Of a stretch of 64,000 nucleotides of DNA, positions 38,982-46,440 are shown in pieces (position 1 is the stretch's first letter; each line of letters opens with the position of its first letter). Origin of the DNA: Patescibacteria group bacterium (lineage in GTDB: Bacteria; Patescibacteriota; SICC01); assembly GCA_040902515.1 (NCBI GenBank), contig JBBDXB010000006.1:130219-194218 (forward strand), in the 5' to 3' direction. The translations under genes and the position numbers were made by a program. The notes beneath the pieces were generated by a model. It did no database searches. It was not told the DNA's origin and saw only the letters and a list, made by a program, of their open reading frames with translations.

Positions 38982-39416
38982 CCCAGTGTACCCGATACAG
39001 GCATAAGCAACCGTCCACAAAATATGCCCTACGCCCGGACATGGCGCTTGACAGTCGGATGCCGCTTTGAACGAACGGGGTTTTCCCCAGTACCGCCAGC
39101 GAAAGACGCCCGACCTACTTGATTTACCGTTACGTTTTTGGCTTAGTTGTGATGTTTACTCGGACACCTGACGGATTTCCGATACCGTGGGGCTCGGCGT
39201 ACACTGAATAGTGAAAACAAAAACACGGCGGCAAAACACCGCCTGTGGTTATTATCGGTTCCCGGGAACCGTCCAACAAAAACCCCGAGAGGGAAACAGG
39301 GCCTTGGCGCGTGCGCCGGGGCTCTGTTTTAGTGCGGATCACGCGTCCGAGCGCCGGTTTCGTTCGATGTCCAGGCGTGGATTACCTTAAAAAGTGCTTA
39401 TATAAGCCAAAAAGAC

Positions 39417-42284
39417 TTGACAGCCAGTCATTTTTTTGCTAAGATAAGGCAATTTTTCGGGTTCCCGATAATCCCCCAAAAATACGCAGCCGGAACAGCA
39501 ACACAGAACAACGTGCTCGGACGATTCCCATTCAGGTCGACGCTCATCCGCCTCGCGGCGGTGGTCACGCTGGCATTGGTTCCCCTCGGGACCGCGGCAC
39601 CGGCCGAAGCGGCGGACGGGTACCAGTTTCCCTGCAGCCCATACAAGCTATCGGGGTATAACTTCGGACAGCACGTGTCCGGCTGGGGGTATCACGCCGG
39701 CCAGGACATCGCCTGCTCTTCCGGGACCCCCGTCTACGCGATCGCCGACGGGAAAGTGGTCTACTCCGCGCTGACCCCTGACTCCTGGCGCTGGGGAAAC
39801 CTGATCATGATCGAGCACGCCAACCCGAACGGTTCCAAGGCCACCAGCATCTACGGGCACCTCAGCAACAACCGCCGGGTCGCAGCCGGCCAGCGCGTCA
39901 GCAAGGGGCAGCATATCGGCGCGATCGGGCCGAGCAATACCCGGGAGAACGGACGTTGGGGGGACCACCTCCATTTCGCCGTCCACCTCGGGGCCTACGG
40001 AGCCTCGACCGGTACGTACTGGTCGGCCATCCACGGATACGAGCCGGCCAGCAAGATCGGCCGGTACGCGCACCCCGGGAAGTACATCACTTCGCGGCAG
40101 AACTATTACAGTTACCAGTACGTCGGCCAGAACGGCGGCGGTTCCAAGGCCAGGACGGAAGAACATTACGTCGAGTTCCGACTCAAGAACACCGGACAGG
40201 CCACCTGGCGGTCCAGCGGTTCGAACGCGGTCCGGCTCGGGACCGAGCGGCCGCGTGACCGCGGCAGCACGTTCTCCCGCGGCATGGGCGGACATGGCTG
40301 GCACGCTCCGAACCGGATTTCCCTGCAGTCCGACACGCCCCCGGGACAAGTCGGGGTCTTCCGGGCTCGCTTCAACAACAGCTACGTCTCGCCCGGAAAC
40401 CACCGCGAGTACTTCACCCCGGTCGTGGAGGGGATCAGCTGGATGCGGAACATCGGCATGTACACCGGTATCCGCGTGCAGGGATACAACTACCGGGCCC
40501 AGTGGTACGGGCAGAGCGCCCACTTGGAGCTATCGCCGACCTCCCGACAGACCACTAACCATCACCGCTATCTCGCGGCGGGCAAGAAAGTGAATCTCAA
40601 GGCGTACATCAAGAACACCGGCGATTACTCCTGGCATGCCGGAGGCAAGCACCCGGTCCGGCTCGGCACGAGCCGCTCGATCGATCGGAAGAGCCGCTTC
40701 GCGACGACTAAGCGCGACGGCGTTCCCGACGGCGAGCAGTGGATTAGCGGCAGTCGGGCGACCGGACTGAACGGCCGCCTGGACCCGTCCACCAACAAGG
40801 TCGTGGGAGACAGTACGATCGAACCCGGCCAAATCGGCGTGTTCTCGTTCACGATCAAGGCACCCGGCACGCCGGGGACCTACCGGGAATACTTCCGGCC
40901 GGTCCTCGAGGGCAACCGCTGGCTGGATGACTTCGGCATGTACTTCGAGCTCCGGGTACTGCCGCATGGATTCCACTACGAGTGGGTCAAGCAGGAGAAC
41001 CCCGAACCGGTGGCCTATGAGCACGGGGACGCCACCACGCGGGTCTACCTCCGGAACACCGGCCAGGCGGCCTGGCCCACCGGGGGTAACGTGCGGCTGG
41101 GAACCGACCGGAGCCGGGACCGCAAGTCGGCCTTCAAGGGCGGCGACTGGCTGGCGGCCAACCGGGCCAGCACGATCGATGAGGTCGCCGACGCGCCGGG
41201 TGAACGGGTCGTGGATCCGGGACAGGTCGCCCGTTTCGATTTCAAGGTGGAAAGTAAGGTCAAACCGGACGGCGGGTACAAGGAATACTTCCGGCCGGTG
41301 GCGGAAGGCAAGGCCTGGTTCCCCGAGGACTACGGCATGTACGTGCCGGTGCACGTCGAATCACCGCCATACGGCTACTCCGTGCTTGACCAGCGGTTCT
41401 CCAAGGATCCGTCCGACGCCAAGTACGGCGAGGTCATCGAGGCGGTGCTACAGGTCAAGAACCTGGGCAGCAACCCCTGGCCGGCGGACGGGACCAACGC
41501 CGTCCGGCTGGGAACGTTCCGCCCGCAGGATCGGCAGTCCGGCTTCGGCACGGTCGGTGGAAGCGCGGGCTGGATCAACGCAAGCCGGGCCGCCCGGATC
41601 AGCGGCAAGGTCGACACGGACGGTACGGTACAATCGGCCAGCGAGATCAACCAGGGCGAAGTGGCCCAGTTCAAGGTACCGCTCCGGATCGATTCCGCAC
41701 TCGATCCCGGCAGCTATAAGGAGTACTTCAACCTCGTCCACGAAGGCAAGGCCTGGATGCCGGACCTTGGCATCTACTTCCCGGTAACGATCACGTCCGC
41801 GAACTATGACTATGAGGTACTGGACAAGCGGTACTCACGGGACCCCCGGCAATTGTCGGAAGACGACGAAGTCGAGGTGCGGGTGGCCGTCCGGAACACC
41901 GGCCGCTACGCCTGGCCGGTCAGTGGCAGCAACGCGGTCCGGCTCGGGACCGAGCGACCGCGGGACCGCAGTTCCGCATTCCGGACGACCACCGGTAGCG
42001 ACCCTTGGCTGGCGGCCAACCGGGCCAGCGGTATCGACGGCAAGGTGACCGACCTGGCCACCCTGGCGACCGTACCCGCCACCGGGATCAAGCCCGGTGA
42101 GGTCGCCCTGCTGAAGTTCACCCTGACCGCGAACAAACTCGGCAGCCATCAGGAGTACTTCTCGCTCGTCCAGGAGGGCGTGACCTGGTTCCCGGACCAT
42201 GGATTGATGATTTCCCTGAACATCACCGCACCGGCCGGTATCAACGATCCCGACGCGTCACCCTCACCGAGCCCGGCACCGTAA
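39417..42284 (+). CDS. secreted M23 peptidase with 5 tandem NBR1-like Ig (beta-sandwich) repeats
   Basis: Signal peptide. M23 domain (GYHAGQDIA...GTPVYAIADG...DHLHFAVH). Five roughly 115-aa repeats, each with NTG..W / VRLGT.RP.DR.S.F / PG.....F.....G.Y.EYF.PV.EG..W. Confidence 0.8.
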   Translation: MTASHFFAKIRQFFGFPIIPQKYAAGTATQNNVLGRFPFRSTLIRLAAVVTLALVPLGTAAPAEAADGYQFPCSPYKLSGYNFGQHVSGWGYHAGQDIACSSGTPVYAIADGKVVYSALTPDSWRWGNLIMIEHANPNGSKATSIYGHLSNNRRVAAGQRVSKGQHIGAIGPSNTRENGRWGDHLHFAVHLGAYGASTGTYWSAIHGYEPASKIGRYAHPGKYITSRQNYYSYQYVGQNGGGSKARTEEHYVEFRLKNTGQATWRSSGSNAVRLGTERPRDRGSTFSRGMGGHGWHAPNRISLQSDTPPGQVGVFRARFNNSYVSPGNHREYFTPVVEGISWMRNIGMYTGIRVQGYNYRAQWYGQSAHLELSPTSRQTTNHHRYLAAGKKVNLKAYIKNTGDYSWHAGGKHPVRLGTSRSIDRKSRFATTKRDGVPDGEQWISGSRATGLNGRLDPSTNKVVGDSTIEPGQIGVFSFTIKAPGTPGTYREYFRPVLEGNRWLDDFGMYFELRVLPHGFHYEWVKQENPEPVAYEHGDATTRVYLRNTGQAAWPTGGNVRLGTDRSRDRKSAFKGGDWLAANRASTIDEVADAPGERVVDPGQVARFDFKVESKVKPDGGYKEYFRPVAEGKAWFPEDYGMYVPVHVESPPYGYSVLDQRFSKDPSDAKYGEVIEAVLQVKNLGSNPWPADGTNAVRLGTFRPQDRQSGFGTVGGSAGWINASRAARISGKVDTDGTVQSASEINQGEVAQFKVPLRIDSALDPGSYKEYFNLVHEGKAWMPDLGIYFPVTITSANYDYEVLDKRYSRDPRQLSEDDEVEVRVAVRNTGRYAWPVSGSNAVRLGTERPRDRSSAFRTTTGSDPWLAANRASGIDGKVTDLATLATVPATGIKPGEVALLKFTLTANKLGSHQEYFSLVQEGVTWFPDHGLMISLNITAPAGINDPDASPSPSPAP

Positions 42285-42393
42285 ACCAATACTCGCCTTT
42301 TTGCACCGAACGGGCCTATTTGGTACTAACAAGTAGGAGCTAGTTATCCGAAACAAAATCATACAATGCGGAATCATCCTGGGAGCCGGCATC

Positions 42394-44637
42394 GTGCTCG
42401 GCTTGTTCGGCGCGGGCAGCGGTGAGGCGAAAGCGGCGGCGACCAGTTACCAGGTCCCCTGTTTTCCCTACAATAAGCCGAATTACGCCTTCCGGCAGTA
42501 TGTTTCGGGATGGGGATACCACGTGGCCGAGGATTCCTGCCACCAGGCGGGGCTTGCCGTCTTCGCGGCGGGTAACGGCGTCGTGAAGTATTCCGCCCGT
42601 ACGCCGGACTCCTACCGCTGGGGCAACCTGATCGTCATCGAGCACACGACGACGTCCGGTGGCAAGATACTCAGCCTGTACGGCCATCTCGGGAACGATC
42701 GCAAGGTGAAGGCGGGACAAACCGTGTTCAAGGGCCAACGGATCGGTACGGTGGGCCCGAGCGGAAGCCAGAACGGCTACTGGAGCCCGCATATACATTT
42801 CGGCATCCGGATCGCCCGGTACGGCGCGGCGACCGGGTCGTATGACCACTCGATCCACGGTTATGAGTATCCCTGCTGCGCCGCCTGGACGGGACCGTCG
42901 GCGTTCGTGAATGCCCGGCGTGCCTCGTACGATTACGTGCCGCACCGGATCGCCGGGACGCGGGAGATGTGGTTCAACAGCGACACCGAACTGACGTTCC
43001 AGGTATGGAACACCGGCGGACAGACATGGCGTACCGGCGGTGATACCCCGCTCCGGCTCGGAACCATCAGGACCCACGATCGAACCAGCGTCTTTGCCGA
43101 CGGAGGCGCTGCCGACGGGTGGGCCGGCGTGAACCGGATCGAACTGGTGAACGATACGGGACCGGACCAACTGGCGACGTTCCGCGCCACGTTCGAATCA
43201 CCGGGAGCGTCCGGACGTTGGACCGAGTGCTTCGCGCCGGTCGCGGAAGGCGTAGCGTGGCTCAAGGATCGCGGGTTCTGCACCGGAGTCACCGTCCATC
43301 CGCCGACGTGGCGGGGTGAGTACGTCGGCCAACGCATCACGGCCTCCTCGGACCCGGCCGACATGACGGCAACTACCGCCGATCACCTGAAGCCGGGCGA
43401 CACCCGGAGTCTCAAGCTGTTCATCAGGAACACCGGCGAGCTTGCCTGGGTCCAGGGCGGCAGTAACCCGACCCGTCTGGCCACCGCGAACCCGCGTGAC
43501 CGAGCCAGCGCGTTCCGGACGTCCGGCCTGACCGGCAGCGGCGCTTCCGAGAACTGGGTCAGCGGCAGCCGGGCCTCGGAGCTCGAGGGGCGGTACGATC
43601 CGGATACCGATTCCATCGTGCCGGATACCGAGATCACCACCGGCGAGGTCGGCGCGTTCTCGTTCACGGTGACGGCACCTGACCTGCCGGGCTACCACAA
43701 GGAGTACTTCAACCCGGTCGTCGAAGGAAAGCTGCACATGCCGTACCTCGGCATCTGGTTCGGATTGAACGTGCTCGACCGCGGATACCACTATGGGTAT
43801 GAGTCGCAGTCGCAGTCGCCGACCACCGTCGGAAGCGGCGTGAGCGAACAGGAGACCGTGCTCCGACTCAGGAACACCGGCCGGGAGTCCTGGCCGGTGG
43901 ACGGCGACCTCCGGATCGGCACCGCCCGGCCGCGGGACCATCGGTCGACGTTCTACTCATCCTCAGGCAGCGAACCCTGGATCGCCCGCTCCCGACCCTC
44001 CACCCTGGATGCGAACGTGACGGATTCCGGCAAGACGACGGTGGATCCTGGTGAGGTCGGTGAGTTCCGGTTCACGATCAACGTGCCGGAAGACCTCCCC
44101 GTCGGCACCTACAAGCTCTATGTCCGGCCGGTCCTGGACGGCGTGGCCTGGCTGCCGGAAGATTACGGGATCTACTTCCCGGTCAAAGTCACCGCGCCGC
44201 CGATCAGCTACCGGTACGAGAAGCAGGACGTCTCCGGTGACGCGGGCGCTTTCCAGCGCGGCACCACGATGACGGCCCGGTTGGCCGTGACCAACACCGG
44301 ACGCCGGAGTTGGGACGTCGACGGTCAGAACGCGGTCCGGCTGGGAACCAGCCGTCCGCAGGACCGCAGTTCCGCATTCCGGACGACCGCCGGCAGCGAC
44401 CCCTGGATCGCCGCCAATCGTGCCAGCGCGATCGACGGCCGGGTCACCGACCTGGCCACCTTGGCGACGACCCCGGATACCTCGATCGAGCCGGGCGAGA
44501 CGGCGCTCTTCTCCTTCCCGCTCACCGCGAACCCGGCACCGGGAAACTACAAGGAATACTTCAACCTGGTGATGGAGCGGGTCACTTGGATGCGCGACAT
44601 CGGCATCTACTTCCCGTTGACCGTCGTCGCACCGTAA
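42394..44637 (+). CDS. secreted M23 peptidase with 4 tandem NBR1-like Ig repeats (paralog of upstream gene)
   Basis: Same architecture as 39417-42284. M23 motifs: GYHVAEDSC, GNGVVKYS, PHIHFGIR. The last repeat is nearly identical at DNA level to the last repeat of the upstream paralog. Confidence 0.8.
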   Translation: MLGLFGAGSGEAKAAATSYQVPCFPYNKPNYAFRQYVSGWGYHVAEDSCHQAGLAVFAAGNGVVKYSARTPDSYRWGNLIVIEHTTTSGGKILSLYGHLGNDRKVKAGQTVFKGQRIGTVGPSGSQNGYWSPHIHFGIRIARYGAATGSYDHSIHGYEYPCCAAWTGPSAFVNARRASYDYVPHRIAGTREMWFNSDTELTFQVWNTGGQTWRTGGDTPLRLGTIRTHDRTSVFADGGAADGWAGVNRIELVNDTGPDQLATFRATFESPGASGRWTECFAPVAEGVAWLKDRGFCTGVTVHPPTWRGEYVGQRITASSDPADMTATTADHLKPGDTRSLKLFIRNTGELAWVQGGSNPTRLATANPRDRASAFRTSGLTGSGASENWVSGSRASELEGRYDPDTDSIVPDTEITTGEVGAFSFTVTAPDLPGYHKEYFNPVVEGKLHMPYLGIWFGLNVLDRGYHYGYESQSQSPTTVGSGVSEQETVLRLRNTGRESWPVDGDLRIGTARPRDHRSTFYSSSGSEPWIARSRPSTLDANVTDSGKTTVDPGEVGEFRFTINVPEDLPVGTYKLYVRPVLDGVAWLPEDYGIYFPVKVTAPPISYRYEKQDVSGDAGAFQRGTTMTARLAVTNTGRRSWDVDGQNAVRLGTSRPQDRSSAFRTTAGSDPWIAANRASAIDGRVTDLATLATTPDTSIEPGETALFSFPLTANPAPGNYKEYFNLVMERVTWMRDIGIYFPLTVVAP

Positions 44638-44646
44638 CGCAGCCGG

Positions 44647-46440
44647 CTAACCCTTGGCCCGCCCGGTGATCGGCCGGAGTGCCTGGCTGGACTTCGGCGT
44701 CACCCGGAAGTCGAGCGAACGGCCGAAGATCAGCCGTGTCTGGCTCTCGATCGCCGGCAGGCTGGAGAACAGGATCGTCGTCAGGGGCATCAGGACCCAC
44801 TGCGCGATGTGCAGAAGCCGGTGATGCTCCCGGTAGCCCGGCGGTTTCGGCGGCAGGAGCAGGATCGAGATGAAGATCGTCACGATGATACCGACCAGCG
44901 CCAGGGTGAGGATGGCACTGGCGGTCGGCGCCAGCGTCTGGCCGAACAGCGTCTCCCGGAAGCTCGGCGAGAGCAGGATCGGCAACCAGCCGACGAAAGT
45001 AATCAGGATCGGCGCCGTGGCCCATGTCACGTGGCCCTCGAGGAACCGTGCCAGGTGGAGCGTCTTCTCCCGCCAGGGGATCCGGCGGTCTCGGATGGCG
45101 CTGATCACGGCGTACGGGAAATCGGAAGCGCCCCATGCCCACCGGCGGAGCTGCACGTACTGCCCCTTCAACGTCGAGGCGTAGGTGTCATCGAGCACCG
45201 CGTCCTGGTAGACCGGGACGTAGAGCGGCTGCACGAAGTGGTTTCCGTCATGCCGGAAGTAGGTCCGCCAGTACTGTTGGCCGTCCTCGACGATCGTGTC
45301 GACCGACCAGAAGTCGGTGTCGACCACCGTCTGCAATCCCTGCGCGTGAGCCGCGAAGTTCCGGAGCCGGTAGGGGCGGGTCGACTCGATCATGTGCCAG
45401 AACGAGGAACCGGTAGCGATCACGCGGTTGATCGCCGTCGTGTACCAGAGGTTGTTATGGAAGAGCGGCGTCGGCTGGAACGTACGGTACCGCCGCTCGG
45501 GCGTCAGCAGGTACTGGTAGGTCAGGGCCGCGAAGTAGCGCGGATGCGGGCGATGGTCCGCGTCGAGCGTCGTCACGATGACTTCCTCGTGCGGGATCTT
45601 CAGCTTGTCGATCTCCCGTATCGCCTTGCGGCCGGCCCAGGCGAGGTTCGACCCCTTGCCCTTCACCTCGCCGGTGATGTTGGAGGGATGTTCGCTGACG
45701 ATCAGGCGCTTGAAGCATCCCTTGAACTCGCGTCTGATCGCCCGGGCATTCGCCCGTGCCCGCGCCTTGTCGCGTTCCTCCGTCGCCAGTACGACGATCA
45801 TCCGGTCCGGTTCGTACGACGCGTCGGCGATCGCCTGGAAGCTCGGACGGAGGGTGTCGAGATCCTCGGTGTACGTCGCGACGATCACCAGGTGATGGAT
45901 CCGCGATGCCCGCGGTATCGGCTCCGGCGAAGCGATCGCCGTCTCGACCTGGGCCAGCTCCTCCCGCAGTTCCCGGTAGTCCTGGGCCAAGCGGCGGTTG
46001 GTCAGGCCGAGCTGCCGCTGCCAGAACCACCGGTCAAGCCCTTCCCGTCCGCCGTCGATCCGACGGATCACCCGCCGAAGCGTGGCCGCGTAGGTATCGA
46101 TGCTACGCTCGAGCGCCCGGATCCGACTGTGCCAGTCCACGCGGGTATCGCGACGGAGCCGGCGGTATGCCCGGATCAGGTTGGTCGAGAGGATCACCGA
46201 CCGCACCAGCCAGTAGACGTCGAAGAGCAGGATCGCGTACGCGACGACCGGCGGCGCCAGGAACGACAAGACCACCGCGCCGATGAAGATCGACCAGGTG
46301 ACCAGACCCGGCACCATCTCCAGCGCCCGCCAGACGTCGGGCGGTACGGTACGGCGGGTCGCCGACGAGGAAATCCGCGTGTCGGTGAACGCGGGCTGGT
46401 CGACGTAGCGGGCGATCTGGCGCTGGGTCAGCACGCCCAT
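44647..46440 (-). CDS. processive family-2 membrane glycosyltransferase (cellulose/chitin-synthase-like)
   Basis: TLDADH (D,D,D) and QLRRWAWG (QxxRW) motifs. N- and C-terminal TM bundles. Confidence 0.75.
   Translation of the reverse strand: MGVLTQRQIARYVDQPAFTDTRISSSATRRTVPPDVWRALEMVPGLVTWSIFIGAVVLSFLAPPVVAYAILLFDVYWLVRSVILSTNLIRAYRRLRRDTRVDWHSRIRALERSIDTYAATLRRVIRRIDGGREGLDRWFWQRQLGLTNRRLAQDYRELREELAQVETAIASPEPIPRASRIHHLVIVATYTEDLDTLRPSFQAIADASYEPDRMIVVLATEERDKARARANARAIRREFKGCFKRLIVSEHPSNITGEVKGKGSNLAWAGRKAIREIDKLKIPHEEVIVTTLDADHRPHPRYFAALTYQYLLTPERRYRTFQPTPLFHNNLWYTTAINRVIATGSSFWHMIESTRPYRLRNFAAHAQGLQTVVDTDFWSVDTIVEDGQQYWRTYFRHDGNHFVQPLYVPVYQDAVLDDTYASTLKGQYVQLRRWAWGASDFPYAVISAIRDRRIPWREKTLHLARFLEGHVTWATAPILITFVGWLPILLSPSFRETLFGQTLAPTASAILTLALVGIIVTIFISILLLPPKPPGYREHHRLLHIAQWVLMPLTTILFSSLPAIESQTRLIFGRSLDFRVTPKSSQALRPITGRAKG

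Follow-up and report, generated by a model that had tools for sequence, protein, structure and literature searches.

The window analysed here is a stretch of 64,000 nucleotides (64 kb) from a Patescibacteria group bacterium (GenBank assembly GCA_040902515.1, contig JBBDXB010000006.1, positions 130,219 to 194,218 of the forward strand), and the subject of this report is a pair of adjacent genes in it that encode predicted secreted peptidases of family M23, each continued by a C-terminal array of repeats with the FW (NBR1-like) fold. In the open reading frame (ORF) list of the window, the pair appears as plus-strand ORFs at 39417-42284 and 42394-44637. These coordinates, together with the Pfam matches given below, bear out the initial annotation of the sequence, which had named two neighbouring plus-strand genes for M23 peptidases. 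By the scan with the repeat hidden Markov model (HMM), no other ORF of the 64 kb contains an M23 or PF16158 domain. The pair comprises the following features, with both gene starts as revised below:

39513-42284, plus strand: gene 1, 923 amino acids (aa), with signal peptide, M23 peptidase, five FW repeats and a short Pro/Ser tail (exact NCBI match, Pfam M23 and PF16158)
39513-39611, plus strand: predicted signal peptide of gene 1, VLGRFPFRSTLIRLAAVVTLALVPLGTAAPAEA followed by ADGYQF, read from the sequence (basic n-region, hydrophobic core, cleavage site between AEA and A)
39612-40088, plus strand: M23 domain of gene 1, with H61 and D65 (HxxxD), H116 (YGH), H152 and H154 (HxH), and conserved Cys41 and Cys68 (Pfam E 1.4e-22)
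40122-40478, plus strand: FW repeat A1, 119 aa, the shortest type (repeat HMM E 1.7e-44; groups with the position-1 repeats of all homologues)
40482-40958, plus strand: FW repeat A2, 159 aa, with insertions (repeat HMM E 8.9e-57; position-2 group)
40959-41354, plus strand: FW repeat A3, 132 aa (repeat HMM E 5.5e-47; position-3 group)
41355-41792, plus strand: FW repeat A4, 146 aa (repeat HMM E 4e-56; groups with the last repeat of the four-repeat gene-1 orthologues)
41793-42224, plus strand: FW repeat A5, 144 aa, the extra fifth repeat and the one modelled (AlphaFold pLDDT 97.3)
42346-44637, plus strand: gene 2, 763 aa counted from ATC, with signal peptide, M23 peptidase and four FW repeats (Pfam M23 and PF16158; start from comparison with a close relative, L005)
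42439-42909, plus strand: M23 domain of gene 2, with H59, D63, YGH at 112-114, H149 and H151 (Pfam E 3.3e-16)
42943-43296, 43297-43773, 43774-44193 and 44194-44634, plus strand: FW repeats B1, B2, B3 and B4 of gene 2 (repeat HMM E 6e-43 to 2e-59)

The Pfam model Peptidase_M23 (PF01551) is matched with 80.1 bits by gene 1 and 59.7 bits by gene 2 (cut-off 28.7), and the domain aligns with solved active enzymes (LytM, lysostaphin, ShyA and phage Gp16), the HxxxD, YGH and HxH motifs being kept. The residues H61, D65, H116, H152 and H154 are invariant in a 46-member family alignment that includes both paralogue clades; the intact HxxxD...HxH motif which had been read in both genes thus stands. N-terminal signal peptides were read from the sequence in all orthologues, and residues 1-31 of gene 1 have a pLDDT below 50 in the full-length model. 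The signal peptide that the initial annotation had assigned to both proteins is likewise upheld by the sequence, for gene 2 via the ATC start only. A recognisable wall anchor was found in neither protein. Judged by their motifs, both proteins are predicted to be secreted, active-looking zinc peptidoglycan endopeptidases of family M23. There is next to no probability that both are instead catalytically dead LytM-type regulators (EnvC/NlpD-like) that activate amidases. The NCBIfam matches are domain-level ones, to M23 enzymes and activators only, with 33-34 bits against equivalog cut-offs of 341-700; weak matches to the ActS, NlpD and EnvC models, far under the cut-offs, are among them. However, the zinc ligands and catalytic histidines are all present and are invariant in both clades. 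An inactive activator of the EnvC/NlpD/ActS type was rejected, as no catalytic or zinc-binding residue has been lost.

Two cysteines of the M23 domain are nearly invariant in the family, C41 and C68 in gene 1 (codons 39633-39635 and 39714-39716), with Cys39 and Cys65 as their counterparts in gene 2. One of the conserved cysteines lies in the N-terminal YQxPCxPY segment and the other just C-terminal to the HxxxD motif, and the two could form a disulfide that fixes the N-terminal segment beside the active site.

The remainder of each protein is occupied by repeats of 118-159 aa, five in gene 1 (A1-A5, 40122-42224) and four in gene 2 (B1-B4, 42943-44634), as counted by motifs and by the repeat HMM. 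Both the counts and the signature NTG..W / RLGT.RP.DR.S.F / EYF.PV.EG..W agree with those first noted. The NBR1-like beta-sandwich proposed at the same time is borne out by HMM search with PF16158, by a profile search, and by structure prediction followed by Foldseek. PF16158 (N_BRCA1_IG) is matched with 58.6 bits by gene 1, best in A2, and with 49.5 bits by gene 2, best in B4 (cut-off 28). An alignment of 50 repeats was used for both the AlphaFold model of A5 and the repeat profile. The model has eight strands at a pLDDT of 97.3, a confidence at which the repeats are not of low complexity. In a Foldseek search against the Protein Data Bank (PDB), ranks 1-3 are taken by 4OLE, the FW domain of human NBR1, a receptor of autophagy (E 1.3e-4, TM 0.51-0.66, identity 14%), and the ILRUN FW domain, 6VHI, reaches a TMt of 0.74. 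A single repeat matched no PDB sequence, 4OLE being reached by the 50-repeat profile only (E 0.006). Sequence profiles and the predicted structure thus confirm that the repeats share the FW (NBR1-like) fold. The full-length model of gene 1 (mean pLDDT 90.5, pTM 0.52) is disordered at residues 1-31 and the last ~14 only and shows no confidence dip between repeats; its Foldseek matches in PDB and BFVD are generic Ig arrays only (TM 0.1-0.2), which is uninformative on function.

The residues R50, L51, G52, T53, D58, R59, S61, F63, W72 and R77 (A5 numbering) are conserved at all repeat positions and would be the first to consider as a binding site or, alternatively, as a network of structural loops. 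The FW family is marked by four conserved tryptophans; in the repeats, W41, W72 and W132 show no or almost no variation. Structural detail on an FW ligand exists for one case, the CtNbr1 FW-Ams1 complex, in which a free N-terminal Gly-Gly peptide lies between F651 and W763 and has its amine held by D654 and D658 (PMC9233695). In order to compare the repeats with this pocket, F651, D654, D658, W672 and W763 of CtNbr1 were assumed to correspond to F12, E15, D19, W33 and the Trp of the 'SHW' motif of human NBR1, the first four being backed by sequence spacing and W763 being assigned from the beta6 motif, and these positions were then carried over through the 4OLE register. In this register, which comes from one HMM alignment, W41 alone is matched to a eukaryotic Trp, and the inferred W672 position is Leu or Val in the repeats. 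The F651 equivalent is aromatic in 32 of the 50 repeats and the W763 equivalent is Phe in 44, i.e., the aromatic walls are largely kept. However, Gln stands at the D654 equivalent in 39 of 50 repeats, 22 of 50 have a gap at that of D658, and neither position is Asp or Glu in any repeat. Since these acidic anchors are not conserved, the NBR1 ligand cannot be transferred to the repeats, and the NBR1 pocket for an N-terminal Gly-Gly, which had been considered for them, is not claimed.

Repeats of this type form a large family. An exhaustive search with the repeat profile matched 8,224 representative clusters (E <= 1e-30 for 1,023), and the FW arrays comprise 3 to 15 matched stretches per protein. 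PF16158 is matched by 61 of 63 sampled relatives, among which the catalytic partners are Amidase_2 (8), SpoIID (5), S8 (3), single glycoside hydrolases and others. Closer relatives, from the search of the cluster collection, show the same partner set, with GH6, GH113 and S8 among the secreted hydrolases that carry FW arrays. An M23 head of this type was found in 3 of 142 representatives, so the fusion of M23 to such repeats is indeed uncommon, as the initial annotation held; the array ends at most 30 residues from the C-terminus in 117 of the 142. The species genomes of GTDB were scanned with M23-centred patterns, and among the matches listed just L004, L005 and a fragment, L006, belong to the family, the others being mostly unrelated M23 genes.

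Because the array is C-terminal and is fused to Amidase_2, SpoIID (with S8) and M23 in related proteins, it would be expected to target or space the enzyme on a cell wall, and by analogy it is plausible that the repeats bind wall glycan or peptidoglycan. It is unlikely that the array is mainly structural, serving as a semi-rigid rod, or as a scaffold like a surface layer, by which the enzyme is spaced or oligomerised, with no specific ligand of its own. Such a role would agree with the lack of low-confidence linkers in the full-length model and with the kind of fold that this model retrieves, namely rods or arrays of Ig-like domains, one of them an S-layer protein. It would also agree with the conserved identity of each repeat position, a pattern more easily explained by fixed contacts between neighbours than by binding units that can stand in for one another. 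However, the most conserved residues are polar, charged or aromatic (R50, D58, R59, S61, W72 and R77) and are common to all positions, as is typical where there is one binding site in common or a conserved network of loops. Furthermore, the arrays are C-terminal on many different enzymes, as are targeting modules, and a pTM of just 0.52 counts against reading a rod from the model.

The history of the pair was traced in related genomes. The same tandem pair is present in four of four related loci examined in full, with 5+4 repeats in L001, L004 and L005 and 4+4 in L002, and neighbours are shared in the three related loci with gene calls. About 50 proteins with the M23 and PF16158 architecture were found in a collection of 5.8 billion clusters, many of them paired on one contig. 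A neighbour-joining (NJ) tree of the M23 domain and repeats 1-3 consists of two clades, each with one member of every contig pair. In the tree of single repeats, the grouping is by position and, inside positions 1-3, by paralogue, which indicates that the 4-repeat array is older than the gene duplication. By these trees, the duplication took in an entire four-repeat protein at an early stage of the lineage; the pair thus consists of ancient, syntenic paralogues and not of products of a recent duplication. Five repeats occur in some gene-1 orthologues only, scattered in separate parts of the gene-1 clade; there, the fifth repeat is a later addition.

Between the two genes, the protein identity of repeats at corresponding positions is 39% for A1/B1, 40% for A2/B2, 43% for A3/B3 and 48% for A4/B4, with 58% for A5/B4; over all repeats it is 27-58%. 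In the sub-lineage of the window, the A4-type fourth repeats are monophyletic in 79 of 100 bootstraps and the fifth repeats in 98 of 100, and the latter are sister to their own fourth repeats in 0 of 100. A hint in the NJ tree that the fifth repeat was copied from the last repeat of the neighbour gene is not claimed (bootstrap 1/100, small distance differences). The gene-1-clade proteins P0008, P0009 and P0016 have a fifth repeat and yet fall apart from the main five-repeat group, which suggests separate gains or repeated losses of this repeat. The fourth repeat of P0008 pairs with the last repeat of P0049, of the gene-2 clade and on a contig equal in length, in 56 of 100 bootstraps. In the gene-2 clade, P0029, P0030, P0033, P0038, P0040, P0042 and P0050 were also noted, and several gene-2 orthologues are extended at the C-terminus by a further ~150 aa, in which CBM60 or PA14 is weakly matched.

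The initial annotation had described a very high DNA identity between the final repeats of the two genes and had taken it, with the differing repeat numbers, as a mark of ongoing duplication and gene conversion. Neither statement survives. The identity of A5 to B4 is 58% for protein and 64% for DNA; it rises to 77% in the best tract, of 204 nucleotides (nt), and to 87% in the best 20-codon windows. Recent, ongoing duplication with conversion between the two genes is very improbable, even though A5/B4 is the most alike repeat pair (58% protein, 64% DNA) and contains a 135-nt tract which rises to 87% in windows. The codons of conserved residues are identical at 28 of 38 places in this tract against a background of 135 of 238, which is marginal (p = 0.052), and the fifth repeat is slightly nearer to the last repeat of the neighbour gene than to its own fourth repeat (0.459 vs 0.432). 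However, the tract is where terminal repeats are most conserved across the family, their most constrained segment, and the fifth repeat and the neighbour's fourth repeat are sisters in only 1 of 100 bootstraps. The paralogues are 39-58% identical and fall into two old orthologue clades, and the fifth repeat is common to orthologues that are ~56% identical and is thus old. In the comparison with L005, the ratio of nonsynonymous to synonymous substitutions (dN/dS, omega) is 0.103 for gene 1 and 0.101 for gene 2; by domain, it is 0.024 and 0.082 for the M23 domains of gene 1 and gene 2, respectively, and 0.05-0.17 for each repeat. These ratios indicate strong purifying selection on both genes. 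An old syntenic pair with positional grouping of its repeats, an omega of ~0.10 and p = 0.052 for the tract leave the earlier picture of ongoing exchange unsupported.

The starts of both genes differ from those first given (39417 and 42394), and two signals are needed to place them:

39417-39445, plus strand: predicted promoter of gene 1 that probably serves gene 2 too (-35 TTGACA and -10 TAAGAT, the latter preceded by TG, at a spacing of 17 nt; the consensus is matched at 10 of 12 positions)
42335-42339, plus strand: Shine-Dalgarno sequence AGGAG of gene 2, 6 nt before ATC (kept in L005, where the spacing is 5 nt)

For gene 1, an identical 923-aa product that begins at GTG 39513 is present in NCBI as 'peptidoglycan DD-metalloendopeptidase family protein [Patescibacteria group bacterium]', and in L005, a metagenome-assembled genome (MAG) that is 93% identical, stop codons break the frame 5' of this GTG. 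The start of gene 1 was therefore placed at GTG 39513. By its context, the TTG at 39417 is read as the -35 hexamer of a near-consensus promoter, not as a start codon; TTGACA and TTGCTA.A.T are invariant across five genomes whose proteins are ~55% identical. For gene 2, the public entry MEX2209617.1 ('M23 family metallopeptidase') has 747 aa counted from GTG 42394, a start which removes most of the signal peptide. This position is CTG in L005. In both genomes, AGGAG is followed 5-6 nt on by a conserved in-frame ATC, with an indel that is not a multiple of three between the two. From the ATC, the product begins IRNKIIQCGIILGAGIVLGLFGAGSGEAKA, followed by AATSYQ, and resembles the signal peptides of all orthologues. 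The public annotation of the L005 gene has 744 aa, consistent with a start at a downstream TTG, and its signal peptide is likewise cut off. Because the GTG is CTG in L005 and the ATC alone yields an orthologue-like signal peptide, gene 2 most likely starts at the non-canonical ATC 42346. No terminator-like site was found between the two genes, and one conserved promoter was found at the locus, so gene 1 and gene 2 are probably co-transcribed from a single consensus sigma-70-type promoter.

In the window, the pair is flanked by an ATP synthase operon and a GT4 (MraY/WecA-type) gene on the minus strand and, on the other side, by a membrane protein gene, also on the minus strand; the same neighbour genes are found on a 681-kb contig and a 193-kb contig. 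The latter gene is the remaining feature of the locus:

44647-46440, minus strand: 597-aa membrane protein, converging on gene 2 with 9 nt between the stop codons (weak Glyco_trans_2_3 match, 21.9 bits, cut-off 27)

A weak GT2 match is given by the ~600-aa membrane protein in both the window and L001. In L001, a protein of about this size flanks the pair at the same end; in L002 and L003, one more gene lies in between. All 11 tRNA genes of the window (12463-61603) are on the minus strand, with the M23-FW pair on the plus strand, and the cumulative GC skew shows a steady drop from one end of the window to the other. The genomes that carry the pair are about 0.6-0.8 Mb in size. L005 was labelled as an uncultured Candidatus Saccharibacteria by its submitter, and the NCBI label is 'Patescibacteria group'; from these labels the lineage, one of small-genome Patescibacteria, is probably Saccharibacteria. 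The G+C content of the window is ~58-67% over most of its length, and such a content is high for Saccharibacteria.

The interval that separates the GT4 gene from the gene-1 promoter contains a conserved block of ~290 nt (39046-39335, plus strand), which is found at the same place in L001, L002, L004 and L005, i.e., among genomes whose proteins are just ~55% identical. Invariant within the block are GCTTGACA, at the 5' end, and GTACACT. Two local hairpins (GGCGGC..GCCGCC and GGTWCCCGGGWACC) show compensatory changes, and on the 3' side a T-run comes after a long hairpin. RNAalifold gives -36 kcal/mol for the plus strand, with both-sided changes in 15 of 49 pairs; the minus strand folds less well. 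No Rfam family matched the block even at E 10. It could represent a small RNA, or a regulatory element, that has yet to be described.

The explanation of the locus that is preferred here, with a probability of roughly 0.6, is a conserved M23-FW paralogue pair which is targeted by its FW arrays and acts on the producer's own wall. The pair consists of predicted Sec-secreted M23 endopeptidases, each with an array of four or five FW modules directly after the enzyme. The array would be the targeting part, holding or spacing the catalytic domain on the cell wall, and the likely contact surface would be the motif special to the bacterial repeats (RLGT, DR.S.F, W and NR). Both enzymes would act in growth and division and may differ somewhat in specificity or timing. 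A four-repeat enzyme was duplicated whole, early on, after which each repeat position kept its own identity, and the fifth repeat came later in some gene-1 orthologues. The own wall is favoured, at roughly even odds, over the wall of a host, for which the odds are clearly lower, because both copies are kept at a fixed site by core genes for envelope and energy functions in very small genomes, behind a conserved consensus promoter and under uniform purifying selection.

The competing proposal, close to the predatory or epibiotic role raised in the initial annotation, is that the enzymes are host-directed: released at the contact site of an epibiont, they would bind the host wall through the FW repeats and open its peptidoglycan through the M23 domain, for attachment or nutrient uptake. 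This is possible, though rather doubtful. The proteins are secreted and have no recognisable anchor, the lineage is patescibacterial with a close relative labelled Saccharibacteria, related genomes contain many secreted FW-array hydrolases (including GH6, GH113 and S8), and M23 enzymes have been proposed in the literature as lytic tools in other Patescibacteria. However, the fast evolution that would be expected of host-contact proteins has left no sign, dN/dS being uniformly low: purifying selection is strong throughout, all repeats included (omega 0.05-0.17). Both copies are fixed in place beside core genes, and neither an immunity gene nor a secretion system is present among the neighbours. 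These counter-arguments are not decisive.

Several points weigh against the preferred explanation. The lack of a wall anchor means that the proteins could be released to act on another cell, a role which the proposals for M23 enzymes in other Patescibacteria would match. Conserved synteny counts for little where genomes are small and in general syntenic anyway, co-transcription is read solely from the lack of signals between the two genes, and the assignment to Saccharibacteria hangs on the submitter's label of one 93%-identical MAG. In addition, position-specific divergence of the repeats misfits simple multivalent binding to one ligand. The enzyme activity of both proteins is a prediction from sequence and their FW binding one from analogy, and the ligands of bacterial FW domains have no published identity.

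A modular wall hydrolase with a catalytic head and a targeting tail is a textbook plan. Both proteins are already in NCBI under generic names, and the pair is a modest variation on a known enzyme plan. What lends it significance is the FW family, which is large (8,224 representative clusters) and whose bacterial function is without explanation; the M23, amidase and SpoIID fusions give rise to a testable wall-targeting hypothesis, for which the conserved M23-FW pair is a good test case. That a paralogue pair is kept in every related locus examined in full, in tiny genomes, suggests that it is likely important for envelope biology or epibiotic life. The repeats are old and differentiated by position, unlike the homogenised repeats of most wall-binding modules. 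A bolder view, which must be regarded as a long shot, is that bacterial FW repeats are readers of peptidoglycan peptides, each position for another wall feature (e.g., free stem-peptide or bridge ends), through a beta1/beta6 aromatic clamp that NBR1 later re-used for the free N-terminal Gly-Gly of cargo in autophagy. The FW domain of NBR1 would then descend from a bacterial wall-binding module, and the M23 pair, with the amidase and SpoIID fusions, would make up the wall-remodelling toolkit of epibiotic Patescibacteria.

Among known systems, lysostaphin, LytM and ALE-1 resemble both genes in being secreted, in their M23 motifs (HxxxD, H and HxH, which align with LytM 2b44 and lysostaphin 4qp5), and in a C-terminal non-catalytic targeting part. 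However, that part is one SH3b domain there and four or five FW beta-sandwiches here; Pfam finds no SH3, LysM or PG_binding domain in either protein. Pro-region repeats of the lysostaphin type are absent as well, and the genes are chromosomal, paired and conserved, which is not bacteriocin-like. A lysostaphin-type bacteriocin was ruled out on the lack of an SH3 domain and on the neighbours, namely the GT4 gene, the GT2-like membrane protein and the ATP synthase genes. MepM, ShyA and ShyC share domain-level M23 similarity and a role in the growth of the own wall, as proposed here, and it is usual for a genome to have several M23 DD-endopeptidase paralogues. They are not orthologues (NCBIfam 33-34 bits vs cut-offs of 341-700), and the regulation of their active site falls to N-terminal LysM or other domains, in contrast to the C-terminal FW arrays found here.

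The FW domains of NBR1 and ILRUN (4OLE and 6VHI) belong to the same Pfam family and have the same fold; the NTG..W and EYF/SHW motifs align, and the aromatic clamp positions are largely aromatic in the repeats. However, the repeats are predicted to be extracellular, are in tandem, are 118-159 aa long and have an insert, RLGT..DR.S.F..W..NR, and the acidic residues D654 and D658 of the CtNbr1 FW domain (PMC9233695) are not conserved in them. Bacterial FW domains have been described near the C-terminus of proteins with very diverse architectures (PMC3357945) and appear in the literature as an unexplained observation only (PMC3357945, PMC9582228). When the literature was searched for M23 enzymes of Saccharibacteria or Patescibacteria, for the name PF16158, and for a link of NBR1-like domains to peptidoglycan, nothing specific came up. 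The proteins reported by Marchbank et al. in 2012 (PMC3357945), e.g., XRE-FW, are alike in the C-terminal position of the domain, which is seen here in 117 of 142 representatives, but are cytoplasmic regulators with a single FW domain, whereas the arrays described here are secreted, have 3-15 copies, and are found on wall hydrolases. Closest in their repeats are the patescibacterial Amidase_2-FW, SpoIID-FW-S8 and other array proteins (P0054-P0098 and P0102-P0243), which have the same repeat subtype (29-38% identity over 28-81% of the query), two to five or more copies and the same lineage labels, and differ from the pair in having catalytic heads other than M23.

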